Assembly (NCBI GenBank): GCA_937914725.1
Contig: CALDMJ010000216.1
Coordinates: 1-39,215 of the forward strand
From: an uncultured Clostridia bacterium
GTDB lineage: Bacteria; Bacillota; Clostridia; Christensenellales; UBA1242
DNA length: 39,215 nucleotides
Direction: 5' to 3'
The notes beneath the pieces were generated by a model. It was not told where the DNA came from. It saw nothing but the letters and a program-made list of their open reading frames with translations, and made no database searches. Made by a program: the position numbers and the translations under genes. This document shows positions 3,001-26,963 of this stretch, one piece after another. Within the stretch, counting starts at the first letter, position 1; each line of letters opens with the position of its first letter.

Positions 3001-6000
3001 GCTGCATCGTCAACAATAATGCCGTATGCACCGTATGTTATACTGCCCGAATTTTCGATAATTCCGTAGTTTGCACCTGAAATACCGCCGACAAGTGCAG
3101 TGCCTAATGTACTTTGCGTGTCATTCTTTGTTGCTTTGACAACAAGGTTGCCGTTAAATCTAACCTTTACATTACTAATTGTTCCGTAGTTCACGCCCGC
3201 AACAAAACCAAGATGCGAAACTTCGTTTGCGCCGAGCGAGGCATCAAAATTACTTGCCGTGACAGAAATTGTCAAATCTTTAATTGTAGCACCCTCAAGG
3301 ACTCCTTTGTCTTTCGTTCCAAGGCAAGCAAATAGCCCATAATAGCCATCCGCCGCCCCTTTGATGTTGAACTTGAGGTTGTTAATTCCATTAATAATTG
3401 TTTTCCCGTCGTTTATAATGTATTTCCCGCTCAAACTGCCTGTGAAAGGATTTTCCACACTGCCGATTGGCGTGAAGTTGTCGATTGCTGAAAGGTCAAT
3501 GCTTTGCGCAAGCACGTATGCTTTGTCCATTGCTTGCGAGATGTTTAGCAAATCGACATAACTTTCAATTTCGTACGGATTTTCGACCGAACCATCTGCA
3601 ACGCGTACGAGAATAACGCGTTTTTTCGTAATTTGGTCGTAATTTATCGTTTCGGACTTAATATTGTCGGCTGGAATGACCCAAACAACTGCGTATCCAC
3701 CAAGTCCGCTCTTTGGCGTGATGAGTCCGCTTTCTGTGACGTCGATTAGCGTCGACTCGCTGCGACTATAGTTTGCCTCGTCCGTAAACCAATTTTCACC
3801 GCCGCCTGTTTTTGTAATGTCAAATGCGTGGTAAATGAGCGTCCTATTTGCCGCATCGACAGGCATAGCGGTTGCCCTGATTTGGTAACTATCGCGGCTT
3901 GCAGCGCCTGAAATTGCCGTACCCTTCAAATATACGCCGCGCGAGGTGTTGTAATCTTCAAGCAAAATGCTTTCGACAGTTTTTGCGCGCTTGATTGTGA
4001 CCAAGCACTCTACTGTGAACGTGCGTGAATACTCCGTAACGGACGCGACAAGCGTAACGGTTCGCGAGTCGCCATCAGCGAGATTTAATTTACCTGTGAC
4101 GCGAACGCTACCATTCTCCAAAACTTCAATTATATCTTTATATTGCGTTTCCTTTATTGACCAAACAATATCTTGCTTGTTAATTGTCGCATTTGAAGGA
4201 ACAATGTTTGCACTGATTGTTGTTTGCGATTTGCCAATTTCGGAAATCCCAAGTGTGTTGATGTCAGTCAAAATGACTGTACTTGATGAAAGCGAAACGC
4301 TTTCAATCGGGATGATTGAAGAGAATAAAATTTCTTTTGTCATTTCATCGGTTTCAGTCATATTGCCTGTTTCGGCATCATATGTAAGCCCGATAACTGT
4401 GACAACAACCTTGAAACTCTTGACGACTGTTTGCGTTGTCAAAAAGCCATCTTTTGAAATGCTAACAAGTCCAGCGCTTGCGCCGTTGACTTCAGTGACC
4501 TCATATTTCACACTCTTAGTCTTGGACATAGCGGGATAATTTGCAACACCGATTTTTACATTGCGTCCCGCGACAATAACTGCGGATTCGACAGTCTGCC
4601 CGATTGTTGTGCCATTGTTTGAAGTGTAGTCAATCATCTTTCTTTCGATGACTTGCGCGTCGTCTTTTGGCGAGGCAAGGGTTGTGACAAAATCTTCAAA
4701 CGGAGCAACTACTTCTACCGCTGTTCGCCCATATGTATTGCCGTTTGAAACGTATGAAAGCGTTGCATAACCCGTCTTTAGTGCGTAAATGCGATGTGTT
4801 TGAGTTTCTTCATCATAGGCGACTTGGACAACTTCGGGGTTGTTTGATATAACTTCGACAGTAGATTTTCTTGCACCCGCTGGCTCGACTGTAAAACTTA
4901 GTTCGGTATTTGTCCCCCAGCCATATGATTCACTGTACCAAAGCGTAACTGATTGCGCAGCGGTGACGTTTTCGACTGCGGTCAAGCAGTTTACTTTGAC
5001 TATAAGTGGGTCGCAAAGAGATTCACCGACTGGCGCAATTTCAAAAGTAAATGTTTCATTTGCAAGCGTGCCATCGTGGCTAATAAACATTCTTGTTCCG
5101 CTTTCAATTTCGCCCTCCGCATTACCAACTGCGCCACCAAGAGAATCGACAATACTCAAGTGGTTTTTAATTTCCTCGCCGATTATCATTTTGTATTTTG
5201 CGTTGCTAGCACTATTGGGCTTGAGCGTAACGATAAACTCCGTGCCGCGATTCATACTTGTTCGACTTGCGTTGTAGACTGTGATTTCGTCATTTTCGGC
5301 GCTAGTGACTATTTCGGTGACTGCGTCAATTATCGTGAAATCGACTTTATGACTTGCAACAACCATATTTTCATAATCACTATAGTACACCTCAAACACA
5401 ACGCTTGTGTCGCCCGTGTCGATTGGGCTGAGAACCACTTGCGTGTTTGTGCGCGCAGATTCTTTTTCAGTCAAAAAACGCGTATCATTCGAAACAACTC
5501 TTATCGCAAGCATTTCTTTGACTGTGTCAATATTATAATCAAATGACACGGCAAACAACGCCTTTGTTGGGTCATTTTTCACCCACTGCATAGTGTCTTC
5601 CAAAGATTGATTGCCCTCATTGAAAGCGCCATAAAAAGCGATTTGCTCAGCGTTCACATTTGGCAAAACCGCAACGTCCACTTCCGCAAAAACTTCTGCA
5701 CTTTCTTTGAACTTTGGAGAAACGCGAACGCGGATAGTTTCGGTCGTAGCTTCCGTAACAGACAAGTTACCATCGCTATCAATGCTTGCGCCTGCAACAT
5801 CTTCCGCGAGACTAAATTCGACATCGCGAACATTTGCATCGCTCGGCGTGAACACGAGTTTTGTCACATCAATCTTTGTCGGTGCGCCGCCAATGACAAC
5901 CGCTGGTTCGTAATCCTTTTCAAAACTCAAAGCGGATACCTTGCGCACAATGCTGACTTTGACAGTCAACTTCTTGCCGCCCTCTTTTGAGTTTATGTAA

Positions 6001-6341
6001 AGCTCTACATTACCTGGTTTTTTTGCGATAATTTCCGCCGTTGTTGTGTCACCGTCAAGTTTTGTGCTTTTCACGTACAACTTTGACGTATCACTTGAAG
6101 TGAACATCGCTTCTTTAGAAATCTTTTCGCCGACTCCTGAAATCCTAACCTTGACCTCAGCCGTATTGGGGTCAAGCTCTCCTTCGGGGGTATTGACCTC
6201 AACATTTTCAGTGAGTTGAATTTCAATATTTGAATCAGTTATCAATTCCATTTTCATTTTTTGATACGGACTTCCGCAAGCAGATAGCGTGCAAGCGACG
6301 CCTATCAAAAATGTTATCAATAACGCATATAATTTCTTCAT
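1..6341 (-). CDS. Giant cell-surface lipoprotein, N-terminal 2113 codons only (C-terminus lies beyond the left window edge). Contains tandem Ig-like beta-sandwich modules and a central GLUG-motif repeat block.
   Basis: The ORF is absent from the supplied track because it is open at the window edge. ATG at 6341-6339 (minus) has GGAGA 4 nt upstream. I hand-translated this frame at 6341-6240, 3122-3060, 2830-2700 and 95-3 and found no stops there. The track lists no terminated ORF in this frame, which is also consistent with an open-ended ORF. The N-terminus reads MKKLYALLITFLIGVACTLSAC-GSPYQ, a signal peptide with lipobox L-S-A-C. Ig-like module signatures follow, for example TSSDTSKLYVKSTKLDGDTTTAEIIAKKPGNVELYI. 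Confidence 0.85.
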   Translation of the reverse strand, partial: MKKLYALLITFLIGVACTLSACGSPYQKMKMELITDSNIEIQLTENVEVNTPEGELDPNTAEVKVRISGVGEKISKEAMFTSSDTSKLYVKSTKLDGDTTTAEIIAKKPGNVELYINSKEGGKKLTVKVSIVRKVSALSFEKDYEPAVVIGGAPTKIDVTKLVFTPSDANVRDVEFSLAEDVAGASIDSDGNLSVTEATTETIRVRVSPKFKESAEVFAEVDVAVLPNVNAEQIAFYGAFNEGNQSLEDTMQWVKNDPTKALFAVSFDYNIDTVKEMLAIRVVSNDTRFLTEKESARTNTQVVLSPIDTGDTSVVFEVYYSDYENMVVASHKVDFTIIDAVTEIVTSAENDEITVYNASRTSMNRGTEFIVTLKPNSASNAKYKMIIGEEIKNHLSIVDSLGGAVGNAEGEIESGTRMFISHDGTLANETFTFEIAPVGESLCDPLIVKVNCLTAVENVTAAQSVTLWYSESYGWGTNTELSFTVEPAGARKSTVEVISNNPEVVQVAYDEETQTHRIYALKTGYATLSYVSNGNTYGRTAVEVVAPFEDFVTTLASPKDDAQVIERKMIDYTSNNGTTIGQTVESAVIVAGRNVKIGVANYPAMSKTKSVKYEVTEVNGASAGLVSISKDGFLTTQTVVKSFKVVVTVIGLTYDAETGNMTETDEMTKEILFSSIIPIESVSLSSSTVILTDINTLGISEIGKSQTTISANIVPSNATINKQDIVWSIKETQYKDIIEVLENGSVRVTGKLNLADGDSRTVTLVASVTEYSRTFTVECLVTIKRAKTVESILLEDYNTSRGVYLKGTAISGAASRDSYQIRATAMPVDAANRTLIYHAFDITKTGGGENWFTDEANYSRSESTLIDVTESGLITPKSGLGGYAVVWVIPADNIKSETINYDQITKKRVILVRVADGSVENPYEIESYVDLLNISQAMDKAYVLAQSIDLSAIDNFTPIGSVENPFTGSLSGKYIINDGKTIINGINNLKFNIKGAADGYYGLFACLGTKDKGVLEGATIKDLTISVTASNFDASLGANEVSHLGFVAGVNYGTISNVKVRFNGNLVVKATKNDTQSTLGTALVGGISGANYGIIENSGSITYGAYGIIVDDAATANVRVGGVCGENHKNIVGQFVFVGDLLTPSSGETNYNVDYNDETVNSSIYFENHTQNAIIGGISAVNFASITGAYSKATITSPQYVGGISAVNYGSIVSVRFTGFIKANKFAGGIVGENARLASSAVAGTITFGIVEICDDKVHFENYDDSMFANYGGVVGANAEGTIKYSFINSYSAQRKNNNENADFAISASNISQFGAFAGRNDGTIAKSFANVQLNTDIQHIFVDSNNGAISSCYSLSYVGDFTTTNQTMYSENASDFTTKSGINFGKKIIKIDAAEESARGELLLTQSPTSLQARVLGELNKANRGRMGDGNRYYKNSDTQLILFYNTGANATEANNVYYLKDMFSIVVSPNTSRNKNVIVKVIEGQNVLKVEGASMTTLGQGRAVLRFASDLDESVFCDVEVFVVYGITSIDVDNINKRVENNQTYKELKVALDGTFDFKISNYNVETNNDVESQFAALASGGYLFSFDEANIVTFDRFEVNNDKSFFVRYDASQIMTALSAITTSARIYPYIAAQFSSGTEIVETKVVLSDIYYDFDLIIYEGLSNFNLQSASEEIMPDTTLNYDVTLTTDQKNDIIDFVKIYNGSKLDNDGNVKECEEYDLSQGVMNKGISQNTKFAMEILQAQFDETQNTKTLTFEIAPSTNVDGALAILQREAFTIEFGVTYANGTKATKSFTLTLVPQSLSNILVNHYNDGADFDANLTGAGEEVSTKIIPGQYGLLVVNLYPDYSTFDRLEITSSTVQNDIITFEQVYYNIDANNYDTRVENTQIITNGISVKRQSTKRLKEDGNFEYAFDGRIFLRTVTGSSITTGQVFTITISAFKEGESAPYITKTIELTALQAPYLTFDLTNGRTYKSVAHEYYVAHQVNNEFTVVTDSAVNETSGISSKITDASGAIVAGVSLVKTGNTIISGERQTIKYVILANAAFEKGKTFNVELVVERTINGVKTKSRIVNKLHVVDFLVTGFDIVDGQTDEILVSNGTLSRPLSTE
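2345..3345 (-). repeat. Protein-level GLUG-motif repeat block (about 9 copies) inside the giant lipoprotein
   Basis: Hand translation gives recurring G-G-[IV]-x-G-x-N-x-G-x-I motifs: LVGGISGANYGIIENS (about 3095-3050), IIGGISAVNFASITGAYS (about 2822-2770), YVGGISAVNYGSIVSV (about 2745-2700). Further copies are FAGGIVGENARL, YGGVVGANAEGTIKYSF and FGAFAGRNDGTIAKSFA (about 2400-2345). The pattern matches the GLUG motif family (PF07581) from memory. Confidence 0.6.
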
Positions 6342-6764: not shown

Positions 6765-7691
6765 TCATTTTGTTGCGTCCCTCATAATCCCTTTCCAAGT
6801 TTCAGGAGCACTGTTCCAGCAAGCGTCCGTTTGTGAACTCAAGTTTGAAACATTTGCATTGACAAACTTAATTGTAACTTTGACCGTAACCGACTTGTTT
6901 GCGTATTGATTTGCTATAGCCGATTCAGCAGTGACAGCATATTGCTTAAACAACACAGCAGTGCTTGTTGAACCACCGCTCTTCTTGGTAAGTACATTGT
7001 TATAATAATAATATTTAGTAGTAGCAGTTTTCCCTGTGTCGTTAATTTCTTCCTTAATATTGCCTACAGTCCAAAAACTCTCTCTCAATGTTGGCGTCGC
7101 AACCATTTCTATAGGATAAGTTGTGTCCTCTTGGTGTTCTTCATAGATTTCTATCTTGAAGCAAACAAAAACATCCCCTTCGCCGTTGTTGCGAACAGTA
7201 AGTCCCCTCTCAATCTTGTCGCCCATATTGTAATCTTTGACTTCATCACTGAATTTGCGAACAGTTTCACCATATGTCATACCCTCGTCAATGTCGACAG
7301 TGATTTCTTTTTCATCGCTGCTATTTAAAAGCATAGGAACAACAACTGCTGCGCCGACCGCGATTGCCGCGATAAGCACAACCAAAACAAGTGAAAATAC
7401 AAGTTTTTTGACAGTTCTTTTCTTTTTAGGGTCTTGACCGCCTTTTTTGCCTTGCATCGCGCTCTGAAGTTCGGCTTGCTTCGCTTCCTCAGTCGAAACA
7501 TCCGTGCTTGGTGCAGCCTTCGGCGCTTTAGGTGCGGCTGCAGCGGCGTTATCTGCCGTTGTTGGTGCTTTCTTTGTTGCTGGTGCTTTTTTAGGGGCAG
7601 CAGGTTTTGATGTAGCGGTTGTTGATGCCGCTTTCGGCGCGCTCGCCTTTGGTGCGGCGGGTTTGGTTGGTTTGATTGGTTCGTCTTCCAC
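6765..7691 (-). CDS. TasA/camelysin-like (SipW-dependent class) secreted protein with a long Pro/Ala/Lys-rich N-terminal extension and one TM helix
   Basis: 308-aa ORF with a GTG start at 7691, 7 nt after AGGAGG. Residues 1-96 are low complexity (KPAAPKKAPATKKAP). The TM helix is about residues 97-122. The ectodomain has TasA-like signatures: GDKIERGLTVRNNGEGDVFVCFKIEI, and a C-terminal YYYYNNVL...SVTVKVTIKFVNA pattern shared with the neighbouring 186-aa protein. Confidence 0.75.
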   Translation of the reverse strand: MEDEPIKPTKPAAPKASAPKAASTTATSKPAAPKKAPATKKAPTTADNAAAAAPKAPKAAPSTDVSTEEAKQAELQSAMQGKKGGQDPKKKRTVKKLVFSLVLVVLIAAIAVGAAVVVPMLLNSSDEKEITVDIDEGMTYGETVRKFSDEVKDYNMGDKIERGLTVRNNGEGDVFVCFKIEIYEEHQEDTTYPIEMVATPTLRESFWTVGNIKEEINDTGKTATTKYYYYNNVLTKKSGGSTSTAVLFKQYAVTAESAIANQYANKSVTVKVTIKFVNANVSNLSSQTDACWNSAPETWKGIMRDATK

Positions 7692-7801
7692 GATTTTTCC
7701 TCCTACTAACTTTACTTTCTTTATTTTATACTTTTTTTAAATTCAAAGCAAGCGTTTTGACGCACTTTTTGCATATTTTTGTCGATTTGCGGCATATTTC
7801 G

Positions 7802-11119: not shown

Positions 11120-11223
11120 AGACAAAACATTGTCCATTTCGTCTCAACACAATTGCAGTTTCTATACTACAATTGCGGGTTATGTACTCAATATTATTGC
11201 AATTTGCATACTAACAAAAAAGA

Positions 11224-11255
11224 GCAAACAGCGGGGGCGCGCTGTTTGCCTTTTT
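11224..11255. terminator. Bidirectional GC-rich terminator between the convergent gltX and giant gene
   Basis: 10-bp stem gcaaacagcg (11224-11233) / cgctgtttgc (11240-11249). T5 follows on the plus strand and an A-run precedes it, which reads as a T-run on the minus strand. It lies about 115 nt downstream of the giant-gene stop at 11364. Confidence 0.75.
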
Positions 11256-11363
11256 GTTGTTAGAATAGACTTTATTCCATTTATGTTTATGAAAACATAT
11301 ACTATCAATATATAGATTATCGTTAATTCACTTTTTAGGACACTTGGGCGACATGTTGATAGA

Positions 11364-14300
11364 TTATGTTTCATATGTTGGAATGGCTGTTTTAGAGCCA
11401 ACTTTTTCAAATGGTTTCGCTCCATCCCAGTTATCTGTATGTACTACTGCCGAATCATCATATTCAGTAGTATTTGAATAAACCTGAGATACAACCCATA
11501 CTTTATCATCTGTTATTCTCCTTTTAGTGGCAAAATCAACCCACTTATCATCAAAATCGCCTAAGTACTGTTTGCACTTCGTATCTCCCTTGTCATTTCC
11601 GTCCAAAATCGATGTGCGAAAATTGCTTATTTGGTGAACGAAATTCCATTTATCCCACGCCCAGGATATAGAACCACCTATTATCCCTCCAGTTTGCCAT
11701 TCAGATAGTATGTCGGTGCCTTTAAAGGGGTCATCGATACTACCTTTTTCGTTTGTAGTAACGTAATAATAGAATTTTACTTCGGTTCTGTCAATATATC
11801 CTATATTATTCCCTTGTCTCCATTCTGCATAATAATTCCAACCTACCCTCCACCCAAATGTGCCCGTTACTTCCGAAGTACTCACAGTAAGGTTTAAAGT
11901 AGGAGACAAGCGTTGACGCTTTGCGACATCGTTCGGGCCTGCGTAAACAACATACTCTTGTGTACCCAATGTTTCTTTTGCAGCGTTAGACGGCAAAACA
12001 ATATAGTCTTTAATAGTTTTCCCACTTTTAAATGACAAAGCCCCAAATCTATTTTTAAGCGAAGTTTCATCCAATCGAATAAACAAGTACATATCCCATT
12101 TTTCATTACTCTTAGTTTGTGTTGCTCTTGAGTAGGTCCCGAGTACAAATTCATCTGGCCAGTTACTAGGAGAAACTGTGGAGAAAAGTAGTTCCTTTCT
12201 ATTCGAATTACTTACCATATTATCCGATGAACTTATGACTACTTCTTTAGTCGTGTGATCTTTTGCCACTGAGCGATATTGGACAAAATTCAAAGCTACG
12301 TCGCTACCGTCAAGTATAGGATTGATTCTCCCGCCTGTCACAAGCCCCTTAAAAGTATTGCTTGTACGCAAAACGTCGAATGAAGTATTCTTATTCCAAT
12401 TCGAGTACGCAACAGTATATTTGCAGTCGGATGCACGAGATTGCAAACTACTTTGGTTATTTGACCTATAGCACGTCGCTTCATTGACATAGAATTCGGC
12501 ACTTTCTTTGTAGGTATACCCGCCGATAGTTGGCGTATTTGTTGTTTTTACCTTGCAGTAATATGCCCCCGGAGCAAATGTTGTGCCTGTCGTGTTGGAC
12601 ATCAAACGACTGAAATCGGCATTGAGTTGTGCTTGTATGTCGGTAACAGTGCCTGTGTATGTTTTGCCTGTTGAAATGCCCGTCGCGGCATTGATAAGTT
12701 CAAGTTCAAATTCAAACGAACCTGCGCTTAGTGTACTTGATTCAAATTTGACACCGTCAGGGTCAGTGAGTTTTCCGACCTCGATTTTGAGTGTAACTTC
12801 ATTTGTGCTTGAAACTTTAATTGTAGCGGTTTTTATACCTGGTACAAACGGAATGAACACGCTTTCGGTTTCATAATCATCCGAATCAAAAATGTAGTCG
12901 TTGTCAGAACTAATGCAGACGAGTGCGGTATATGTACCAGAGTTTTTCACGCCGCTGAATGTGACAGTCGAGCGATATCTCACATCTTTATAAGAGAGTC
13001 CTACGCTTCCAGACTTTTCTCTTCTACTTTCTCTTTCAATTGAGTAGTACATACGGCTCGAATCATATAACCTTTGGACAACTGAGTCACTTCTATAACT
13101 TACATTGAGGCACTCAATTTCCGACTCACTATCGTTTAACACAAGTTCCGCATACTGAGGCTTGAACAATTTGTACTTGACATCAAATGTCCTACTATAC
13201 GAACTTTCGTCAAATTCGACGATGTCACTGCTGACCAAGTTTTCGTACCTATCATATACACCCAAAATTCTCATTGAGAAGTCGTAGCTGCCATAACTTG
13301 GGCTACCGCCAAGCAGGTCACCAATCATTCCTGTGGCGTTTTTAGCGTTGCGACGATAGAACACTGTCAAATCGTTGTTTTGCCCTGAAACAACATTGAT
13401 TGTTGTAGTTTTGCTATTTCCATAGTACTCAACTTCAATCAAAAGTGACCAATTTTGTCTTGCGACATATGCGGTTGTATTCAATGTATAGCGCGACATA
13501 ATTGTTCTTGCTAATTCGCTGCTGTTATTAAATTCGTACTCTGAATATACGTGACTACGATTGCCAGTTGTTGCATACTGCCCACCATAGTACTCGGACT
13601 CCGTGATTGCAAAGTTCGGGAAACCGATATATGCTTTATATGCAAATGAAATTTCGTCTGAATAGTCGGAATCCCAAATATATCCTCTTTCTTCGACGTC
13701 CACATACATTTTAATTTCTGTTTCGCCGACGCTATATCCGCGTTCGTCAAGTTCTTTTTTGACAAAATCATATGGAATGTACAATGTTGTTCCCATTTTG
13801 TACGGGACTACATCCGAGCGCCTTGTTGTGATTGTTCCGCTCGCGATACTCATTGTTGTTGTGTTGCTGCCATTTTGTGATAAATTAACAACAAAGTTAT
13901 ATGGGCTGTTTCCAAGTCGCATATTGACGATGTTTTCAATTCTTGAAAAGTTTGCAATCACAAAGCGTCGGCTGCCGCTATCATATGTGACATTTGGTTT
14001 TACAACCTTATCAAAGCGGCTTGCGTAGCGCGAAACTGAGTTAATTTCGGTCGAATCATAGATATATTCTTCCTTATTTTGCGCATTGGTGATTTTGCTG
14101 TTGTTGTATGCTGAGACGTATAATTGGTAATTAGCGTTCTTTTTCAATACGCCGTCATTGATGACGAATAGGTCAATATAGGCAACATATTTTTTTGTGG
14201 TCGCATCGTATGTGATGACGACTCCATTTGTGCTTGCAATGTAGCTCCCCTGCCATTTCAAAATCTCTATTTTATCCGTTTTTGAGTCACGGATATTTTT

Positions 14301-17300
14301 GTAGTACAGGTAATACTTTTGCGCTTGCGAATCCTGCAAGTAGGCGCGCAAGACGACGTTTCCGCTCATACTTTGCAAACCAGCGGTGCTTTGTCCTATT
14401 GTGTAGTGTAAATATGCAAATGAATCGTCCTTATTATCATTATTGTATATATATGCCACTACGTTTGAGGACGAATTTGCAGTTGCTTCATTAAAAGTTC
14501 CGCCTTGACTGATGCCAATTGATAGATTTACTGGAACAAGCGTCCCTTTCATAATATATGAAAAGTCAAATGGCTGTGAACTTTTTGTTGCGGACGCAAT
14601 TGGCAAATCGCGAATGAGCGCATTTGCGTTGCTTTGTTGGTCAAGTTCGCCAAGCGTTGTAATTGAAATTGCGTACTTATCAGGCAAGCCGCCGTCGATT
14701 AGCACGAGGAATGTCAGTGTGTTTGAATAACTTGTACTATTTTCACAAGGCACATATCTAAATTGCGAATAACTATAACTGCCGCCTGAAACAGAACGCG
14801 TATACAAGTCGTTGGCTGTTACAATTTTTTGACCAGCAATACTATTAACACCATATTCAATTTCATAGCATCTAACAATGCTATAGTTGCTGGCTGAGCC
14901 TGCAACGTATGCGGACGGGTCGGCTTTCAGCAACAAACTCTTTTTGTAGTTGCTGTTGTATTCGGTGCCGACGATGTCTAGTCTATAGGCAAAGTACTTA
15001 TTGTATTGCACATTTTCAAAGCTGAATGTGAAGCCCGCGACGTAGCCGTTTTTGTCGTAGACATTTGTGATTAGCGCACTTTTTACTTGGGCAAGTGTGA
15101 TGATGTAGTTATAAATAAACTCACTTTCGTCACTTTGCGCAAAGTTTTGCTCGCTGATTGAATTGAAATAGATGTTAATTTTATTATTGCTTGGGTATAG
15201 TTTACCAGTGATGTCGATATAGTAATACCCGTCGTTTTCACCGACCACTTTTTCGCCGAGTTTAACAGGCGCTTTAGTATCCTCATTGTACAATTGACGC
15301 TGATTTGCCCCGAGGTTGAACGACGGGTCACCTTGCGTGATTTTGTAGGCAACAAAGATTTGTTGAATATTCTTTTCAATGCCTGCATCCTCAAAATATT
15401 GCGGAATTTTGACCTTTATATACTCACTTCCGTCAATTTCGACAACGGACAAGTCACTTGGCGTGTTGATTTTGACGATATAGTTGTAGATCAATTGTTG
15501 CCCCGCACTTTCGAGATAATAGGTAATTGTTTCATCTGAGTCTGCTGCGGCTGCACCTGTTTTTGCCATACTCTTTAGCGTGAACGTGTAGTTTGCAGGT
15601 CTTTTCATAATTTGGTCGAAGATTTCTGCATTTTCCGTCGAACTAAATGTAATGCTTGTTTTGTTTTGAACGTTCACTGTTGGGATAACTAGCGAAGCGC
15701 CGCGGTTGTAGAGCCCGACGATGTCGAGTTGGTACTCGGCATTGTAGAATTTACTCAATTCCGTTTGCCACTCAAGCACGATTTTGCTCATTCTTGTTGT
15801 GGCGGTTGCTTGACGCACTTGTTCGCTGCCACTCTCATTGTCATAGACTTTGACTGCGACGGAGAGCGATGGCGCGCAATAGAATGTGTCGTGGTCCAAC
15901 GTTTGCGCATCACTGTCAAGCGTATAATTGTTTGCGTTGCCGAGCGCAGTCACGGTGTATGTGTAACGCCCCGGTTCGGCAAACTGCCAAATAATGTGGA
16001 GTTTGCCTTTGTTGTCGCTATACGCAAACGAAACCTTATTATATAGCGCAGTGCCGCTTAGCATATCATATATTCCGCTTTTGCCGACTTTAAAATCAAC
16101 GACATAGTTCATATAGGTTTTGTCATTTGGGTTTATTGTGTCCGATTTGCATTCGGATTGTCCCGTGATTGTCAATCTATAGATTGCATCAACATTATAG
16201 TTGACAACTTTGCGCAGTTCTTGGTCATAGTCAATGACGTTATCGACGTTTGTGATGACAATCTCGACGCCTTTCTTTGCTGAGTCATTGCCCGTCAAGT
16301 TAATATCGAGGTCCTTCACATCAAAAATTGGTGTTTTGATTTTTTTTGCAAACGCTTGTTTCGTGATTGTTACTGTTCCAGACTCGTAATAATATCTTGT
16401 AGGTGAGGCGTTGCACTTTAGGCTGACCGTGTTGTGCCCTGCAAACAAAATGTTTTCAACTTCATAATATAGATATCCGTTTTCGGCAATGATTTTGTCA
16501 GGTGTGAAGTCTTGTGAGTGCTTGCCGCCTTTAGTTTTGTTAGGATCTGTGACAACACCTGTTTCGCCGACGACACCTTCGGAAATTATTGTTACGTTGT
16601 AGGCGTCGATGATGCTATAGTAGTCACGAATGTGTGGGTGGATTGGCTCATCCCACTTTATATAATGTTTACCATCGTCACGCTTAACAAGTTCAAGACC
16701 TGTTGGCGTCATATACCTTAGGTAGTAGTCATAACGCAAGAAGTTGGTTTGATATACTGACTCTAGGTAGTAGCCTTGCTCGGCGGACTTTGCCTTGATG
16801 CTGATTGCACCTGTCATATAGATATTAAAGCCGTCCGCTTGCAGTAGTTCGACGAGCGAGAACGTGAGCGAAATTTTGCGCTCGCCGCCCTCGGTGCGTT
16901 CACTAATTTTCACGCGCGTACTAACATTAACTTGCGCAGTGCCGCCTGTCATATAGCCGCTGGCGGTCACCATTTCTCCGATTAGTTCATTGCTAAACGG
17001 TAGTGTCAAGTAATACTCACGCTGGTTAATGAGCAAAACATAGGTAAATTCGCTTGCGCGGTTTATATATGTTTCGGCAAATTTTACATCAAATGTGAGC
17101 CACATTTCTTGCATTTCAAGCCCTTCGTCATTAATCCTTTCTTTGCCTTCGGTGTCGATGACGAGGAGGCTGAGAGCCAATGTTTCGGCGCGCAATTTAT
17201 GGTCATAGGTGATTGTGACTTCCTTGCTTTCTTTCATCACAAAGTGGACTGTTTTACTATTGACAGTAAACGTTTTTTGATAACCGTTGATTTTTGCAAT

Positions 17301-20300: not shown

Positions 20301-23300
20301 AGCGTATTTTATAAGCGCGCTTTCATAAATTGCGCCTTCAGGCTTTGTGATAACAATATAGTTTTCAATTTGTCCGTTCTCATTTTTGCGCTTATCGACG
20401 TTGAGTGACACGAGCGCGTCAAGTTTCACGGTATAGAACACAGTCAATTCGTTTGACCAGTCGGAATCGTCCCAATATACTCCGTCGCCGAGTTCTTTGA
20501 CTTTGATTTTGTAAATTCCAAGCCCTGTGATTTCCATTGTGTTGGTAAGATTGATGATTGTTGACTGGATGTTTTCATATACAAGAGATTTTGTTGCACT
20601 GCCTGAGAGAGCACTTTCGCTTTCGTAGTACTCTATGTCTAATGTATAGCCTGTTCCATCGCCTTGCCCAATGATTGTCAATTTGTGCGTTTCTTGGTCA
20701 AACGTGATTGTTGGCGCGGCGAGGGCGTGCGTGAGATAGAAGTCGTAGGTTGTGTACAAACTATCATAGTAGTACCCTGTTGCGTTGACGCGGACGCCGA
20801 GCAAGAATTTGCCTGTTGTTCTATCGCCGATGACTTCCGTGAGGTCGAAACGGTTTTCGGTAACGTCGTTAGCAATCAAGTGCTCGTCCACTGAGAATGA
20901 GTATGTTTCAGCGTATGGAACAACATCCCAAACAGCGTAATACTTTCCGTCCACATTTTCGACTGTCAAGTTTGCTGGTGGTGTGAACTTGAGCCACAAT
21001 TCGTATGGCAAACTGTTGCTTGGTTCGCTTTCAAGGAAGTAGTCGTATGTTTCGGCAACAACTGCGATGTCGTATTTATTTGCGCCTTTGAAAGCGCTAA
21101 GTTCCGTCTTGATGTCGACTGTGATTTCCGCTTCCCCGTTGTCGGCGATGCCCGTTTTGATCTTTGTCCAAACATTTTCGGTTGGAAGTTTTGCGACGAT
21201 TGCGTAAGATTTTGCGTTGTTGCTTGTAGCAAACTTTGCTTCGACGCGGTTATTTCTACCGATGACGGAGATTAGGACTGGCGAATCAAGTTGCACGTAT
21301 TTCGTGTATGTATATGTGACTAGTTGCGACGGGTCAACCATATTTTTGTGCGAGAAGCTTTGCACTTCAAAGTCATAGAAGCCGTCGCCGTACACTTTAA
21401 TATATTCGCGCAAGTTTACGACGCTCAATTTGAATGAGTCGTCCGTAACTTCAATAAGCGTGTAGGTGATTGCTTTGTTTCTAAATGTGAGTTTTAGGTA
21501 TTCAAACTCCATTCGCACATCACTTGTCCACGACACTTCTTGCAAGACGTCGTCATACTTAAAGTTCGTTGGGTCGGCGAGTTTGATGCGGATTTCCGCC
21601 GTCACTGGCGTTGACCACGCGGAGTTGCCGAGGAACAATTCCTCGACTTTGCGCGTCATTGCGCTAATTGTGAATTTTCCGACGCCGCCGAGACTTGCAA
21701 TTGTTGTTGAAAGGTCTGCCCTTTCTTCATTGACAATAATATCATTTGAGACAAAACTACCGTCGTTTTGTTCAATGCTGACGCGAATTGTGTAGCCGTT
21801 GAGCGCTGTTTCAGCGCCAGTGAAGGTTAAAACCTTTGTTTCGTTGTTAAAGGTTAGGTTTGTTGGCGTTGGCTGCTTATCAAAGTACGCATATTCAGCA
21901 ACATTTGAGTATGAGGAATAGATAATTGGCGTTTCTGTGACTTCGGGTTGCTCAAGCACGGCGCGGACGCGCACTTCGTACTTGCCAAAGCCTTTGCTTT
22001 CTAAATATTCTGTAATGTCGCAGTTAGTTTTTACTGTTCCTTTGCTAAATTTAGTCGAAAGGACTTCAAAACTTGCGTTTGCTAGTTCGACAACTTGTTT
22101 TGTGCCGTCGACTGTTTGCAATTCGTGCGTTTTTCTAATTTCAACCTTATAATACTCGGCAAAACGCGTTGTTGTGAATGTTGCGTAGTAATGTACGCCG
22201 TCGTCGAGCGTTTGTTCGGTTACTTCGACGTCATTTGGCGCTTTCAAGATTGGCGTGTAGTCATATTCCTCTGCTTTGCTTGGGTCTGAATTTTCATAGT
22301 ACCCTACGCCGACTGCGGTGAGGACAATTTTGTTTTTGCCTGCCGAAATGATTGAATAGATGTCGCAGGTTGTTAGGCGCGACGTCATAATACTAATTGC
22401 GCCTGAAACTTCGCTTTCGATGCTAATGAGATAGTTAGTTGCATTTTCAACTTGCGTGAAGTAGAGCAAGACACTTTCTTCATCAACATTGTCGACCATA
22501 ACAAATCGCGGCGTTTGCAGTTTGATTTTGTTTTCAAACATCGCAACTGCGCTAAATTTACTATCCTTGTATCCAGCAGTTGCTACTTCGTCAGTGACAT
22601 TGCCGACGCATTTTACTTTAGCCGAATACTTTTTCGCGACAGTCAATGGTTCAAACTCAAAGATACTGGCATATAGACTTGAAATATCAACTTCAAATGC
22701 TACAGTTTGATTTTCGTCATCGACTGTGCTTGTCACAAATTGCGAGTAATCTGGGTTTGTCACAATGTTTGCGTATTCAACGCCGTCAAACCACAAAACA
22801 TAGTCACTTGCGCGGTAATCGCCACTAAATGAGAATATCATTGTGTTTGTTTCGCCGATTGAGCGTTTGTAGAGCGCAACATTTGTTGGCGTGTTCAAGA
22901 CGATTTGGTGCGAATATTCCGCCGTCGTTTCTTCCGATGCGCGGAAGTAGCCGCACGCATTGACGGTTATTGCAATTTTGTATGTTGTTGGTTGCGTGAA
23001 AATTGCTGAGGTGTCAAGAATTGTATCATAGACAACTTCGTTGTAGATTTCGTTGTCGTTTTCGTCAAGAATTACAACTGTATAGCCATTTTTCGGCGCA
23101 AACTTGACATCCCCTACCACATTTTGCGCTATTGCTGTAAATGTCAAATATTTTCCGTTTTCCAGAACTTCGATATTTTGAACCGGTGCGAATTGGTCGA
23201 GGACATTTAATTCAAGCACTGCACTAAAGTCACTTGTGAGGTAATAGCCGTATCCGTTGGCTTTGACCCTAATTCTAAAGTCACCGCCGATTGCGTCTTC

Positions 23301-24455
23301 AAGGTCTCGGCGCAAATTGATTTCGTTTGCGGTAGTATTCTTTTGGAAGAATGTGGTGCCCTCGCCATTAACAAGTTCGACCGTATAACTATACGCGTGC
23401 GGAACGGCGTCCCAACTAAACCACACAAGTTCGCCGTTCATTTGGTAGCGGAGTCCGTTTGGCATTGAAAGTTGTTGATAGACGTCAAAAGTAAGTGTTT
23501 CTGAATTTTCGCTTGCCAAGTACCAAATCACTTCTTCGTCTAGTCCTTGTGATTGGACATTGTTTGCGTAGACGTAAACCTCATATTCACCGATATCGTC
23601 GACATCTTGCGCGCTAAAATATATGTAGTTCGACGAAATTGGGGAAAATTTTTTTGGCTCAAGATTGCCGTGTGACAAAACCACTGTGTAGGTTTGCGCA
23701 TTTTCTACTGCGTCCCACGCAAGTTTTTTGTCCGCTTGGCTATAAATAAGATTGGTTGGAGCATTGAGCCTACCTTTCAAGCTATGCTCGACTGCAACTG
23801 AGGATGGCGATTGATTGATGAATTCGTTTTCAGCGATTGCTTTGACTGAGAATGAGTAGTTCTTTGTATAGTCAACCACAACGTCGCTGATGTCAAACTC
23901 AGTCTTGCTGACGATTGCTGTTGTCGCGGTGGAAATGTCGGCATTTTCGATAATCGTAACTTCGTACATATCCGCTCCGTCAACTTGAACCCACACGAGT
24001 TTTGCATCGTACTTATCAATTTCCGCAATTGGCTGCGCGAGAGTTTTTGTAACAACAAAGTCATCCGCAAAAATAACATCACTGTTTTTAAAACCATTGT
24101 CGGCAATTGCTTGCACGGAGATTGCATACTTCTTTGGCGATTCGACAAGGTTTGTGATGTCGATGTTCAAATCGTCCGCACCAACTTGAACGACATTATT
24201 GTCGATGCTATAGCGGTAGGCGCTGGCGTTTTTGACCTTATCAAACTTAAGGTACACATTGTCGCCCAACTTTTCTACCCTGACATTTGCTGGGTTATCT
24301 AGTTGGATGCGCGTTTGGTACGATGTTTGGAAATATATAAAAAGCCCTAATCCTGCGACCATAATCAGAAGCGCCAAAACACTCAGTGACTTTAGCCACA
24401 TTTCGCGAACCTTTATTCTTTTTTCAATTTTTGCTCTTGATTCAATCTCACTCAT
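11364..24455 (-). CDS. Giant (4363 aa) N-terminally membrane-anchored surface protein: tandem FN3-like modules plus a unique C-terminal domain
   Basis: Uninterrupted ORF from the track. ATG at 24455 has AGAGG 6 nt upstream. Residues 21-42 (LKSLSVLALLIMVAGLGLFIYF) are the only obvious hydrophobic helix. No LPXTG motif or C-terminal anchor is visible. The body is a periodic module of about 100 aa carrying the W-x-x-V-x-x-A-x-x-Y-x-V signature. Confidence 0.9.
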   Translation of the reverse strand: MSEIESRAKIEKRIKVREMWLKSLSVLALLIMVAGLGLFIYFQTSYQTRIQLDNPANVRVEKLGDNVYLKFDKVKNASAYRYSIDNNVVQVGADDLNIDITNLVESPKKYAISVQAIADNGFKNSDVIFADDFVVTKTLAQPIAEIDKYDAKLVWVQVDGADMYEVTIIENADISTATTAIVSKTEFDISDVVVDYTKNYSFSVKAIAENEFINQSPSSVAVEHSLKGRLNAPTNLIYSQADKKLAWDAVENAQTYTVVLSHGNLEPKKFSPISSNYIYFSAQDVDDIGEYEVYVYANNVQSQGLDEEVIWYLASENSETLTFDVYQQLSMPNGLRYQMNGELVWFSWDAVPHAYSYTVELVNGEGTTFFQKNTTANEINLRRDLEDAIGGDFRIRVKANGYGYYLTSDFSAVLELNVLDQFAPVQNIEVLENGKYLTFTAIAQNVVGDVKFAPKNGYTVVILDENDNEIYNEVVYDTILDTSAIFTQPTTYKIAITVNACGYFRASEETTAEYSHQIVLNTPTNVALYKRSIGETNTMIFSFSGDYRASDYVLWFDGVEYANIVTNPDYSQFVTSTVDDENQTVAFEVDISSLYASIFEFEPLTVAKKYSAKVKCVGNVTDEVATAGYKDSKFSAVAMFENKIKLQTPRFVMVDNVDEESVLLYFTQVENATNYLISIESEVSGAISIMTSRLTTCDIYSIISAGKNKIVLTAVGVGYYENSDPSKAEEYDYTPILKAPNDVEVTEQTLDDGVHYYATFTTTRFAEYYKVEIRKTHELQTVDGTKQVVELANASFEVLSTKFSKGTVKTNCDITEYLESKGFGKYEVRVRAVLEQPEVTETPIIYSSYSNVAEYAYFDKQPTPTNLTFNNETKVLTFTGAETALNGYTIRVSIEQNDGSFVSNDIIVNEERADLSTTIASLGGVGKFTISAMTRKVEELFLGNSAWSTPVTAEIRIKLADPTNFKYDDVLQEVSWTSDVRMEFEYLKLTFRNKAITYTLIEVTDDSFKLSVVNLREYIKVYGDGFYDFEVQSFSHKNMVDPSQLVTYTYTKYVQLDSPVLISVIGRNNRVEAKFATSNNAKSYAIVAKLPTENVWTKIKTGIADNGEAEITVDIKTELSAFKGANKYDIAVVAETYDYFLESEPSNSLPYELWLKFTPPANLTVENVDGKYYAVWDVVPYAETYSFSVDEHLIANDVTENRFDLTEVIGDRTTGKFLLGVRVNATGYYYDSLYTTYDFYLTHALAAPTITFDQETHKLTIIGQGDGTGYTLDIEYYESESALSGSATKSLVYENIQSTIINLTNTMEITGLGIYKIKVKELGDGVYWDDSDWSNELTVFYTVKLDALVSLNVDKRKNENGQIENYIVITKPEGAIYESALIKYAFYEIDSIDSDIEEGQEAVLQIISKQTEFKIEGLANAKYYKVVATILGAFDSVQDYKDSTELSDTERAAAIRDLAYYNNSDEKTVNMSTLGSELSAPIIEKITMTESKNLEIIFSKVLNAEDYTLLVTRQSKGAIIYNAVINVENVNAQIGADSIIVTFSAMIDEFTDEYDIYNIKLCANEVLGENGEVVYAKSPNTEYDFEWTVALSAPTVEFIKQVDGSLRIQVSNIAFATGYELELKINSFTQTYTLNTDAYIDFSSPQYGAYTARAKALGDTYHKDSDWGESEDYYNRMELGGVEWVEIISNGDVATLATRIYAQWNEVEGAKMYGVKVEKDGAFVGEYTTNKTYFDLINLFKDPNNGYGTYTVWAKTNGDGAYITGESTYTKYATYRYKGQFEVPLGLEIVYEYNIDEYPTTLSYYAKFGQVSGAEKYIIKFYSNDEAKTEIKTIELSVNDLDISNGNCTADITDVLKYIDGGVYLATIKVAETRSSLESAESEPYEFTNYHIHDDPSLSASQIGNTPFVRLRFSEISTASLYSLRINSQLYLENGETFAYSSGYIDINAKFLNIGGKNLFVLRIVGDLGAYYLDTYYSTAMSNFTFKLQNVEDILIEQDDKTQIADGTNYHIWLSFRQVDFATSYELWIDNAKVSTLPAGQEKYDISALFQNKMPKDDYEIRLIATDSVYGLSNSDSTLYKFDYTLQFSAPTSFVLSDSGTNLIASWSAPQNFEAFSALASANRVTLGVQTYKIVVYYILDGEEILAEEIPDINTMTRDLTDIVCEAGAWRIYVYASANGAFDESKDAAIETYDVVIKLDAVKNLRIYESGDKVLLDFDKVTELNYVYASGYLKNLYYEVYLNNGSIVKIAHSSSTTGIDITKHLWGGDNIVYVITRNNDTEHFIDSSQSDDAEYNYDTAFIALTNATIYHNDQRNKQFFRFDDFEVNGMTSDEILNLTYTLTFYNEAGEQISTYDKYVATRYDSTTLEIDVTSVINSKPGAYTVIAKINGYQKTFTVNSKTVHFVMKESKEVTITYDHKLRAETLALSLLVIDTEGKERINDEGLEMQEMWLTFDVKFAETYINRASEFTYVLLINQREYYLTLPFSNELIGEMVTASGYMTGGTAQVNVSTRVKISERTEGGERKISLTFSLVELLQADGFNIYMTGAISIKAKSAEQGYYLESVYQTNFLRYDYYLRYMTPTGLELVKRDDGKHYIKWDEPIHPHIRDYYSIIDAYNVTIISEGVVGETGVVTDPNKTKGGKHSQDFTPDKIIAENGYLYYEVENILFAGHNTVSLKCNASPTRYYYESGTVTITKQAFAKKIKTPIFDVKDLDINLTGNDSAKKGVEIVITNVDNVIDYDQELRKVVNYNVDAIYRLTITGQSECKSDTINPNDKTYMNYVVDFKVGKSGIYDMLSGTALYNKVSFAYSDNKGKLHIIWQFAEPGRYTYTVTALGNANNYTLDSDAQTLDHDTFYCAPSLSVAVKVYDNESGSEQVRQATATTRMSKIVLEWQTELSKFYNAEYQLDIVGLYNRGASLVIPTVNVQNKTSITFSSTENAEIFDQIMKRPANYTFTLKSMAKTGAAAADSDETITYYLESAGQQLIYNYIVKINTPSDLSVVEIDGSEYIKVKIPQYFEDAGIEKNIQQIFVAYKITQGDPSFNLGANQRQLYNEDTKAPVKLGEKVVGENDGYYYIDITGKLYPSNNKINIYFNSISEQNFAQSDESEFIYNYIITLAQVKSALITNVYDKNGYVAGFTFSFENVQYNKYFAYRLDIVGTEYNSNYKKSLLLKADPSAYVAGSASNYSIVRCYEIEYGVNSIAGQKIVTANDLYTRSVSGGSYSYSQFRYVPCENSTSYSNTLTFLVLIDGGLPDKYAISITTLGELDQQSNANALIRDLPIASATKSSQPFDFSYIMKGTLVPVNLSIGISQGGTFNEATANSSSNVVAYIYNNDNKDDSFAYLHYTIGQSTAGLQSMSGNVVLRAYLQDSQAQKYYLYYKNIRDSKTDKIEILKWQGSYIASTNGVVITYDATTKKYVAYIDLFVINDGVLKKNANYQLYVSAYNNSKITNAQNKEEYIYDSTEINSVSRYASRFDKVVKPNVTYDSGSRRFVIANFSRIENIVNMRLGNSPYNFVVNLSQNGSNTTTMSIASGTITTRRSDVVPYKMGTTLYIPYDFVKKELDERGYSVGETEIKMYVDVEERGYIWDSDYSDEISFAYKAYIGFPNFAITESEYYGGQYATTGNRSHVYSEYEFNNSSELARTIMSRYTLNTTAYVARQNWSLLIEVEYYGNSKTTTINVVSGQNNDLTVFYRRNAKNATGMIGDLLGGSPSYGSYDFSMRILGVYDRYENLVSSDIVEFDESSYSRTFDVKYKLFKPQYAELVLNDSESEIECLNVSYRSDSVVQRLYDSSRMYYSIERESRREKSGSVGLSYKDVRYRSTVTFSGVKNSGTYTALVCISSDNDYIFDSDDYETESVFIPFVPGIKTATIKVSSTNEVTLKIEVGKLTDPDGVKFESSTLSAGSFEFELELINAATGISTGKTYTGTVTDIQAQLNADFSRLMSNTTGTTFAPGAYYCKVKTTNTPTIGGYTYKESAEFYVNEATCYRSNNQSSLQSRASDCKYTVAYSNWNKNTSFDVLRTSNTFKGLVTGGRINPILDGSDVALNFVQYRSVAKDHTTKEVVISSSDNMVSNSNRKELLFSTVSPSNWPDEFVLGTYSRATQTKSNEKWDMYLFIRLDETSLKNRFGALSFKSGKTIKDYIVLPSNAAKETLGTQEYVVYAGPNDVAKRQRLSPTLNLTVSTSEVTGTFGWRVGWNYYAEWRQGNNIGYIDRTEVKFYYYVTTNEKGSIDDPFKGTDILSEWQTGGIIGGSISWAWDKWNFVHQISNFRTSILDGNDKGDTKCKQYLGDFDDKWVDFATKRRITDDKVWVVSQVYSNTTEYDDSAVVHTDNWDGAKPFEKVGSKTAIPTYET
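12477..24296 (-). repeat. Array of roughly 35-40 diverged FN3-like modules of about 100 aa (protein-level repeat)
   Basis: Recurrent module starts have the form L-x-x-P-x-N-[LV]. The second-strand signature recurs: LVWVQVDGADMYEVTI, LAWDAVENAQTYTVVL, FSWDAVPHAYSYTVEL, AVWDVVPYAETYSFSV, AQWNEVEGAKMYGVKV, LYFTQVENATNYLISI. I counted at least 29 modules in the first approximately 2900 residues. I spotted no long near-identical DNA repeats by eye. Confidence 0.65.
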
Positions 24456-24606: not shown

Positions 24607-24634
24607 AAAAAAAGGTGTGATTTTTTCCACCTTT
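24607..24634 (-). terminator. Weak terminator-like hairpin after the 367-aa gene
   Basis: 7-bp stem aaaggtg/caccttt (24611-24617 / 24628-24634) with a 10-nt loop, followed by a T-run on the minus strand. The stem overlaps the stop codon and is AT-rich, so it is weak. Confidence 0.35.
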
Positions 24635-25736
24635 AATTTGACTTTGTTTCGGGGCTGCGCAGTTTATAAGATTTCAGAAAATCTTTCAATTCCTCAATAT
24701 GCCCTGTTTTATCAATTTTGTTGACAAGTTCGACAAATTCACTGCGCGTCACTTCTAGTAACCTTTGCGATTCGTCTAGTTTTTGTTTGAGCGCTTGATT
24801 TTCACATTTTATGATTTCAAGTTTTCGCGTGTTTGCACCGAGTCGAGCGAGCATTTCTTTTAAATTGGCATTTGCAAGTGAACATTCATCGCGAAGCGCT
24901 TTGGGCGCATTTTCGATTGCGCTGCGCTTGACCATTTTGACAAGTCCCATAAACAAATTATTGATATCGGCATCCGTCAAAGTTTGGGATTTTGGCATTC
25001 GTAGAATCTTTGCATCGGGTTCATTGCGCGTGATTTCACACAATGTGCCTTCACGATTTAAATTTACATTTTGGGGCGTAGTTATTTTCGTCATTTTTTG
25101 TTGACTTGTGCCGTTTTTTTCATTGCTTTGCAAAATATTGTTTTTTTCACTTCTTGCGGTTATACTGTTATTTTTTGTCACTTTCCCCTTGTTTTTTGCA
25201 AGAATACTACCATTTTTTGCAAGCAATTGATTATTTCGATGTATAAATTTAGTGGTATTGTCAAGTGTTTTTTTGAGATTAATTTTACTTAGTTGCGAAA
25301 CCGTATTTTCCTCTTTTTGTGGGATACTCTTTTCATAATTCAGTCCCAATTTCAACAAATATTTTGGATTGCTTTTCAACAAACTGCGATATTTATTTTG
25401 CAGGCGCAGCATCATTTTCGCGTCACCACAACTCACGTTATAGCACGCTTGGCGCACCGATTTTGTGCGGTTTACTTCACTGACAAGTTCACGCATAGTT
25501 GCTTTAAGTTCTGTTTCCTTGAAATGCTTACACTTTTCAATGTTAAATGCGCCTTGCAATTTGTATTGTTTTACTGCGCTATAATATAGGTTGCGGACTG
25601 TTTCACATTTTAGATCGTGTTGCATTGCAAAAACTTTGAATGCACGCAAACGCGGCATATGTGCCTCGTCCGTTTGTTTGATATATTCAAATAGTTGTCG
25701 TATTCTTTTTTGCATTTGGTCGTGTTTGATACTCAT
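24633..25736 (-). CDS. Hypothetical protein; possible Myb/SANT-like (RsfA-like) helix-turn-helix N-terminus, N/K/T-rich linker and C-terminal coiled coil
   Basis: I prefer the ATG at 25736 (MSIKHDQ..., GAGGTG RBS) over the track start at 25757. RLRAFKVFAMQHDLKCETVRNLYYSAVKQYK resembles the RsfA/Myb pattern (AF..A..L.RT...C..RW....K.QY) as I remember it. The C-terminal region LKEMLARLGANTRKLEIIKCENQALKQKLDESQRLLE is heptad-like. Confidence 0.7.
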   Translation of the reverse strand: MSIKHDQMQKRIRQLFEYIKQTDEAHMPRLRAFKVFAMQHDLKCETVRNLYYSAVKQYKLQGAFNIEKCKHFKETELKATMRELVSEVNRTKSVRQACYNVSCGDAKMMLRLQNKYRSLLKSNPKYLLKLGLNYEKSIPQKEENTVSQLSKINLKKTLDNTTKFIHRNNQLLAKNGSILAKNKGKVTKNNSITARSEKNNILQSNEKNGTSQQKMTKITTPQNVNLNREGTLCEITRNEPDAKILRMPKSQTLTDADINNLFMGLVKMVKRSAIENAPKALRDECSLANANLKEMLARLGANTRKLEIIKCENQALKQKLDESQRLLEVTRSEFVELVNKIDKTGHIEELKDFLKSYKLRSPETKSN

Positions 25737-26916: not shown

Positions 26917-26963
26917 ATAAAACCTCATTAAATTTATATGTTTGCAAAATTGCGAATATTCAT

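Follow-up and report, generated by a model that had tools for sequence, protein, structure and literature searches.

Location and architecture of the giant protein

The window analysed here is the whole of a 39.2-kb contig (CALDMJ010000216.1, 39,215 nucleotides) of a gut bacterium, an uncultured member of the Clostridia, and it is part of a metagenome-assembled genome (MAG) of ~1.2 Mb that is 91% complete and comprises 216 contigs. It carries a giant open reading frame (ORF), the product of which, P0001, is a predicted surface protein. The last 370 residues of P0001, hereafter referred to as the tip, were described in a previous reading of the DNA (the original prediction) as a single Trp/Tyr-rich domain at the distal end of the protein. 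The coordinates and the sequence given for it are exact: the translation of window positions 11367-12476 (-) corresponds to residues 3994-4363 of 4363 (TCYRSNNQSS...AIPTYET). We find that the tip is restricted to one genus, that it is made of two parts, and that the second of these is an allelic cassette that strains and sister species exchange.

The giant gene sits on the chromosome between housekeeping tRNA-synthetase genes; together with a second giant gene, described below, it brings the share of giant surface proteins to ~2.5% of this very small genome (~1.2 Mb). Fibrillar adhesins are surface proteins in which a stalk of tandem domains projects a terminal adhesive domain (PMC8286594, PMC9210967). 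With regard to surface attachment, P0001 possesses an N-terminal helix (residues 24-42), which is its sole strongly hydrophobic segment, as all other 19-residue windows reach at most 1.2 on the Kyte-Doolittle scale; this anchor is neither a canonical LPXTG motif nor a lipobox. With regard to the tandem stalk, a strictly trained hidden Markov model (HMM) detected 13 FN3-like modules between residues 54 and 2389, for which Pfam gave just a sub-threshold match to Tissue_fac, an FN3-like family. As there is one N-terminal helix, no other membrane segment and no wall-binding or sorting domain detected by the Pfam scans of P0001, the C-terminus is likely the distal end of the protein. The distal, exposed position originally proposed for the tip is also supported by the strain variability of its last module, reported below.

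The tip was also said to break with the FN3-like periodicity of the protein. At the sequence level, this holds both with the strict stalk HMM and in profile-profile comparisons. Nevertheless, the repeat periodicity is undetectable from about residue 2400 on, so its loss alone does not set the last 370 residues apart. The module directly preceding the tip (residues 3827-3990) resembles no other part of P0001 in profile-profile comparisons with 120-residue windows.

Table 1. Features of the giant gene and of its 3' end (window coordinates).
Feature	Position	Strand	Description
Giant ORF, P0001	11364..24455	(-)	4363 aa; N-terminal anchor and stalk of FN3-like modules; its C-terminus is the region studied
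Hydrophobic helix, presumed signal anchor	24330..24386	(-)	Residues 24-42, LSVLALLIMVAGLGLFIYF; Kyte-Doolittle 19-residue mean 2.55
Conserved orphan subdomain	11910..12476	(-)	Residues 3994-4182; invariant C4011, Y4013, W4020, LR and other framework residues
KRQRL motif	11907..11921	(-)	Residues 4179-4183; junction of the conserved and variable parts
Terminal beta-rich module (predicted)	11451..11906	(-)	Residues 4184-4335; starts with SPTLNL...YYAEW...KFYYYV, ends with VWVVSQVYSNTTEYDDS
Hypervariable Trp/Gly-rich insertion	11502..11744	(-)	Residues 4238-4318, ~80 aa, includes GGIIGGSISWAWDKWNF
C-terminal tail	11367..11450	(-)	Residues 4336-4363, 28 aa, AVVHTDNWDGAKPFEKVGSKTAIPTYET
Divergent DNA cassette relative to contig L010	11263..11900		3' end of the gene and ~100 nt of 3' untranslated region
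Intrinsic terminator of the giant gene	11223..11250	(-)	11-bp stem, 6 of its pairs GC, with a downstream T-run; the cassette ends there

Distribution of the tip and of the stalk

The tip has very few relatives. A word-indexed search of 5.8 billion clustered proteins with the tip as query returned three matches, all of them giants of 4333-4378 residues, and a full HMMER scan of 1.84 billion representative proteins returned one, a giant of 4368 residues from the same family. When a distant orthologue was used as query, that protein alone was returned. Since the sole database matches are giants, there is no stand-alone form of the tip and no fusion to another stalk in these databases, the two forms that the original prediction had proposed looking for.

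A survey of 200 genomes from the family gave significant matches in the genus of the window alone, where they occur in five of the six other species, always at the end of frames of 2163-4460 residues, the shortest of which lies on a short contig. One marginal match in a second genus (E = 0.008 over 40 profile positions) is probably due to chance. The tip had no match among 400 further genomes of the order, no tip relative was found in JGI metagenome contigs, and no phage relative was found in IMG/VR, the GenBank phages or PHROGs.

Relatives of the N-terminal anchor and the first stalk modules (window 22656-24455 (-)) occur in 21 of the family's 58 genera, in frames 230-4750 residues long. These searches show a widespread stalk and a tip that is specific to the genus. 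The relatives of the stalk include giants of 4092-4753 residues (in genomes G044, G070 and G101) that do not have this tip domain.

Anatomy and composition of the tip

Based on an alignment of nine orthologues, the tip consists of a conserved part, residues 3994-4182, and a variable part, residues 4184-4363, the latter starting with the signature of a stalk module. It is thus not the single domain of ~370 residues that had been proposed. The conserved part shares 96% identity with its counterpart in the same-species strain (protein P0002) and 68-39% identity with those of the closer sister species, and its ratio of nonsynonymous to synonymous substitution rates (dN/dS) is 0.21-0.45. The three most distant species still match this first subdomain (E = 4e-12 to 4e-4), and they match no other part of the tip. 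No family match was obtained for it with Pfam, and no similarity to other parts of P0001 was observed in profile-profile comparisons. The KRQRL motif that closes this subdomain is exact in 10 of 10 closer orthologues, while the three distant species exhibit KQQRL, KQKRL and KRQRL.

The second part begins, at residue 4184, with SPTLNL followed by W and then by YxV, in the same order as at the starts of canonical stalk modules. This module-start motif occurs 20 times in P0001, compared with 7 +/- 2.8 times in shuffled sequences, and one of these occurrences is the one at residue 4184. Three framework elements are kept across the alleles, namely KRQRL, YxxxW and a TxEYDDS strand. Within this framework, the insertion at residues 4238-4318 shares 37% identity with the same-species strain and 10-39% among the other alleles, with many insertions and deletions. 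We refer to the allele of the window as type A, to that of P0002 as type B, and to that of the sister-species protein P0003 as type C. Most alleles end in a semi-conserved C-terminal tail (DNW.GA.PF...IP.YET), which type C has lost together with the whole Gly-rich segment.

The hydrophobicity of the insertion depends on the allele, ranging from 0.25 to 1.87 on the Kyte-Doolittle scale, with 0.48 for the allele of the window. In L007 (genome G160), the insertion holds a Gly-rich hydrophobic stretch, LLTGGVLMGGIFAVGSAIM, which, at 1.87, is close to the strength of a membrane helix; this stretch reaches 1.55 in P0002, is absent from the window allele (0.48) and is deleted in P0003. A C-terminal membrane anchor within the Gly-rich insertion was considered and rejected, as its hydrophobicity is not conserved among alleles.

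The tip was originally described as rich in W, Y, N and G. This is correct for Trp, with 13 residues in the last 370 (3.5%) against 31 in the other 3993 (0.8%; binomial p = 9e-6), while all other 370-residue windows of P0001 carry at most six. Tyr is in fact lower in the tip than in the rest of the protein (5.1% vs 7.7%), Asn is about equal (7.0% vs 6.6%), and Gly is just slightly higher (6.8% vs 5.5%). Ten of the 13 Trp fall within the last 181 residues, and only W4020 and W4212 are kept in all nine orthologues, so the Trp-richness is largely allele-specific. Disorder of the tip, which would have spoken against a functional domain, is argued against by its aromatic content (10.6-15.5%), its conservation and the purifying selection acting on it; the charge-hydropathy proxy for disorder is borderline.

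Family searches and structural models

In line with the original observation that no motif could be assigned, the tip has no match in Pfam, NCBIfam, PHROGs or the PDB, the latter being searched both with phmmer on sequences and with profiles. No recognised adhesive domain was found with Pfam and NCBIfam in the window tip or in eight orthologues, and the tip carries no recognisable signature of a ligand-binding, lectin or adhesive domain.

With regard to the relationship between the tip and the stalk, the strict HMM (13 modules, trained on residues 1-3900) detected nothing significant in the last 463 residues (E = 0.04-0.5), and Pfam fn3 had no match in residues 4184-4335. Comparison of this last module with the stalk profile by hhalign gave a non-significant E of 0.06, with a probability of ~1%. 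When both parts of the tip and the insertion were compared with all 120-residue windows of P0001, the probability was at most 1.5%, while a control module recovered its relatives. A 52-bit FN3-like match at residues 4015-4077, obtained in a loose iterative search, was rejected because it had entered at E = 0.016 and was then scored against itself. The similarity of residues 4184-4335 to stalk modules is thus suggestive but not significant.

The structure modelling that the original prediction had called for gave poor models. AlphaFold2 gave a mean predicted local distance difference test score (pLDDT) of 29.6 with the single sequence and of 38.3 with an alignment of five sequences, which left out four extra orthologues and the member found in the representative search. 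In the latter model, strands are predicted at residues 4186-4197, 4203-4215, 4221-4233 and 4316-4327, with block-mean pLDDT values of ~54-71, the best part of a poor model. These strands are located at the positions expected for strands A, B, C and F of a beta-sandwich, in a model whose mean pLDDT is 38, and confidence is low across the insertion at 4238-4318. Foldseek comparison of the tip model with the PDB gave no match at E <= 0.001, with a query-normalised template modelling score (TM-score) of at most 0.23, and the low-scoring matches are generic beta-sandwich proteins only. The case that the region is made of further degenerate FN3 modules, raised originally as an objection to a distinct domain, may apply in part, to residues 4184-4335, given their start motif and predicted strands.

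A further objection was that the C-terminus could belong to a known cell-wall-binding family. This would reverse the topology: the Trp-rich end would bind the envelope or wall of its own cell, in the manner of GW, SLH or choline-binding modules, and the N-terminal helix would be a cleaved signal peptide. Neither the window tip nor any of the eight orthologous tails gave a match to SLH, CW_binding_1/2, LysM or SH3/GW at E <= 1-10. Aromatic, Gly/Trp-rich sequences are indeed typical of some wall-binding modules, and the N-terminal helix may be cleaved. However, only two of the 13 Trp are conserved, and hypervariability between strains is unexpected for a module that binds the conserved wall polymer of its own cell. 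The lack of a family match and this hypervariability led us to disfavour a wall-binding module, and we regard the reversed topology as extremely unlikely.

The terminal module as an allelic cassette

The strain used for comparison encodes P0002 on contig L010, which is from the same species and syntenic with the window. Nucleotide identity between the two is 97-100% in both flanks and 52-70% over positions ~11263-11900, and blastn left window positions 11263-11801 unaligned. The divergent segment begins with the KRQRL codons and extends to the intrinsic terminator, beyond which the convergent gltX gene is 98-100% identical. At the protein level, P0001 and P0002 share 96-100% identity over residues 1-4100, followed by 47%, 37% and 53% in three segments of the tip.

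Synonymous divergence (dS) follows the same boundaries, with 1.29 for the cassette against 0.05 for the subdomain next to it; along the rest of the gene, codons 1-2000 have a dS of 0-0.006 and codons 2001-3993 one of 0.04-0.17. With a dS of 1.29 in the cassette against 0-0.17 elsewhere, the alleles must be old and imported by recombination, and not recently hypermutated, and a dN/dS of ~0.39 indicates that they are still constrained. The comparison with L010 also reveals sharp small patches of lower identity in the giant gene, at 14100-14199 (75% nucleotide identity) and 14600-14699 (83%). Together with the graded dS, these patches suggest additional short recombination tracts in the distal half of the gene.

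These values bear on the view that the tip is a degenerate end of the stalk, namely one or more diverged beta-sandwich caps without dedicated function, which vary through weak constraint. Divergence that is sharply bounded and that includes synonymous sites points to the import of alleles and not to relaxed constraint. Moreover, the same allele type is retained in two species (see below), the Trp enrichment is unique within P0001, and residues 3994-4182 are conserved across the genus. In favour of a degenerate cap, W and YxV come after the start motif at residue 4184, as they do in canonical modules, the distal 1900 residues of P0001 are also devoid of detectable repeats, and AlphaFold2 predicts beta strands only. 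Taken together, we consider this explanation improbable.

Two mechanisms of local diversification were also considered. Mutagenesis by a diversity-generating retroelement was rejected, as there is no RVT_1 match in the own genome (91% complete) and no second copy of the tip; in addition, saturated synonymous sites and abundant insertions and deletions are unlike adenine-directed mutagenesis. Gene conversion from silent cassettes is disfavoured, as the own assembly, fragmented into 216 contigs, contains no further copy of the tip.

The presence of a conserved motif directly before a variable C-terminal cassette of ~180 residues would also be compatible with a polymorphic toxin-like or released C-terminal effector, in which the dibasic KRQRL would be a processing site. 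The Gly-rich hydrophobic segment found in the insertion of some alleles, with Kyte-Doolittle values of up to 1.87, could be taken in the same sense, but it is not conserved and the values are 0.25-0.5 in several alleles, including that of the window. Downstream of the stop codon, there are ~115 nt, the terminator and the convergent gltX, an arrangement that is the same in L010, and no plausible immunity ORF is present between the stop codon and gltX, as the 315-nt gap contains only junk ORFs of at most 81 residues. Pfam and NCBIfam gave no match to toxin or pre-toxin families, no secretion-system domain was matched, and KRQRL is not a known pre-toxin motif. Furthermore, the alleles are homologous to one another and have a common framework, in contrast to the unrelated folds of exchanged toxins. 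A polymorphic toxin is disfavoured by the absence of an immunity ORF, by the shared framework and by the lack of toxin domains, and we regard an effector as very improbable. The original prediction had suggested ligand binding, a lectin-like activity or an effector function for the tip; nothing points specifically to either of the last two, and there is no toxin or immunity signature.

Exchange of the tip between species

Comparison with sister species extends these observations. The body of P0010 is 94-97% identical to that of the sister-species protein P0003, while its tip is of the window type and 68-76% identical to that of P0001; the tips of P0003 and P0010 share just 28-31% identity. This mismatch between body and tip implies at least three allele classes, one of which is present in two species. 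In the tip tree, P0001 and P0010 are united with a support of 95/95, a grouping that is rejected by the body data (approximately unbiased (AU) test, p = 4e-34). Conversely, the species clades are rejected by the tip data only marginally (AU p = 0.056 and 0.096), and the groups submitted to the AU test were named after the data had been seen. In total, ~13 orthologues or alleles are available, every one of them from metagenome assemblies.

Proposed function of the tip

Based on these results, we propose that the tip is the exposed recognition end of a fibrillar adhesin-like protein, a reading that we consider somewhat probable. In this view, P0001 would be a giant surface fibre tethered to the membrane through its N-terminus, with residues 3994-4363 exposed at the far end. 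The first subdomain is probably a beta-rich conserved domain, perhaps a neck or a scaffold. After the KRQRL junction, a last stalk-like beta module would follow, in which the framework strands are conserved and the ~80-residue Trp/Gly-rich insertion varies. This module and the 3' untranslated region together behave as an allelic cassette, the old and diverged classes of which are swapped among strains and sister species by homologous recombination, with the conserved KRQRL junction on one side and the terminator and gltX on the other serving as recombination flanks. The variable loops would provide a binding or recognition surface for a ligand on the host, on a particle or on another cell, and diversifying or balancing selection may maintain the diversity of the alleles. 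Strong differences between the tips of near-identical strains and the exchange of cassettes are expected for an exposed, interacting surface. The architecture, the distribution and the exchange of alleles are observed directly; the binding function, the beta-sandwich fold, the ligand and the selective agent are inferred.

Several of the results reported above weigh against this proposal. No adhesive, lectin or ligand-binding signature was recognised in the tip, the last module is not significantly similar to the stalk, and neither AlphaFold2 nor Foldseek yielded a fold. The N-terminal helix may be either retained or cleaved. The average dN/dS is below 1, and positive selection is not demonstrated. 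Finally, the marginal rejection of the species clades, the choice of the tested groups and the small set of metagenome-derived alleles limit the strength of the phylogenetic argument.

The tip could also be a target and not a binder, and, being the most exposed portion of a long fibre, it would be either recognised by secretory immunoglobulin A (IgA) of the host or used as a receptor by phages. The replacement of alleles would then be a means of escape, and binding, if any, would take place elsewhere in the protein. Old allele classes and a localised recombination cassette fit this explanation equally well, no binding-domain signature was found, and the type C allele has lost its whole Gly-rich segment and its tail. 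However, the framework and the adjacent domain of 190 residues are conserved, with a dN/dS of ~0.2-0.45, which indicates that its function is maintained and that it is not simply being lost. None of the phage proteins searched is similar to the tip, although such a resemblance is not expected in the case of escape anyway. The two explanations also overlap, since a receptor-binding tip can be an antigen as well. On balance, we consider a purely antigenic or phage-receptor role rather unlikely.

If the tip is indeed a recognition surface, its cassettes may set the specificity for a partner, and the giant protein may be an attachment fibre to particular host cells or to other bacteria. The old allele classes, of which there are at least three with one in two species, would then correspond to distinct partner or host ranges under balancing selection, and KRQRL would possibly be a processing or hinge site. 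We put this forward as a speculative scenario that we consider improbable.

Giant surface proteins are the main interface of many small-genome uncultured gut bacteria, and their working ends are almost never annotated. The present analysis defines the exact bounds of an orphan tip domain, which allows a construct of either residues 3994-4363 or residues 4184-4363 to be expressed. It also identifies an invariant junction motif, KRQRL, and indicates that strains and sister species exchange the tip in the form of an allelic cassette. Because it is exchanged as a cassette, the tip is a candidate marker for strain typing. It is also a candidate determinant of the colonisation niche, of immune recognition or of phage susceptibility.

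Neighbouring genes

The second giant ORF, at window positions 3-6341 (-), runs off the contig and corresponds to 5928 residues in the syntenic L010 (28118-33107). It does not possess the tip domain studied here, as only one protein cluster was matched in the scan of 1.84 billion representative proteins. Around positions 7600-7699, the window differs from L010 by a 45-nt insertion or deletion within a 308-residue ORF (6765-7691 (-)), which is located downstream of an S26 signal-peptidase gene and encodes 323 residues in L010.

Directly upstream of the giant gene and on the same strand, the ORFs at 24633-25757 (-) and 25912-27399 (-) have no Pfam match; the corresponding genes of L010 encode 341 and 334 residues. 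The adjacent ORFs at 27010-27732 (+) and 27744-28595 (+) correspond to tandem Zn_peptidase_2 (PF04298) genes of 240 residues each in L010, the match having an E of 4e-79 for 27744-28595, the one ORF of the pair scanned in the window.

Comparison with known systems

Like the fibrillar adhesins, P0001 is a surface protein of great length that is anchored at one end, carries a stalk of tandem FN3-like modules and has a non-repeat region at the other end; it also evolves fast and has a narrow taxonomic range. It differs from them in that its terminal region, a putative binding end, matches no adhesive domain family, and in that its anchor is an N-terminal membrane helix and not an LPXTG or outer-membrane anchor, which places the tip at the C-terminus.

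This orientation is similar to that of the RTX adhesins of Gram-negative bacteria, such as MpIBP, LapA and FrhA, in which the N-terminus is at the cell, a long repetitive extender follows, and strain-variable modular ligand-binding domains are located near the distal C-terminal end. P0001 shares this geometry. In contrast, whole-protein scans with Pfam and NCBIfam gave no match to the RTX (HemolysinCabind) or BIg families, no type 1 secretion signal was detected, the protein is from a Clostridia MAG, and there is no homology between the two.

Polymorphic toxins of the CdiA-CT, Rhs-CT and LXG types are likewise very large proteins in which a variable C-terminal block comes after a conserved motif, as it comes after KRQRL in P0001. 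Unlike these toxins, P0001 has no immunity gene and its alleles are mutually homologous; neither a toxin or pre-toxin domain nor a dedicated partner for secretion was detected.

Finally, a conserved shaft that carries a recombining distal tip, in the form of allelic or cassette-type variable tips, is known from surface fibres and from the receptor-binding proteins of phages. P0001 has no sequence relation to phage proteins and no silent donor cassettes in the assembled genome, and its gene is chromosomal. It nevertheless exhibits the same sharp switch from near-identity to strong divergence at a conserved junction, the same occurrence of old classes across lineages, and a conserved framework around variable loops. 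Conserved stalks with variable tips are well known in general; what is new here, on a known kind of protein, is a genus-restricted tip domain and an allelic tip cassette that recombines and has an invariant KRQRL motif at its boundary.

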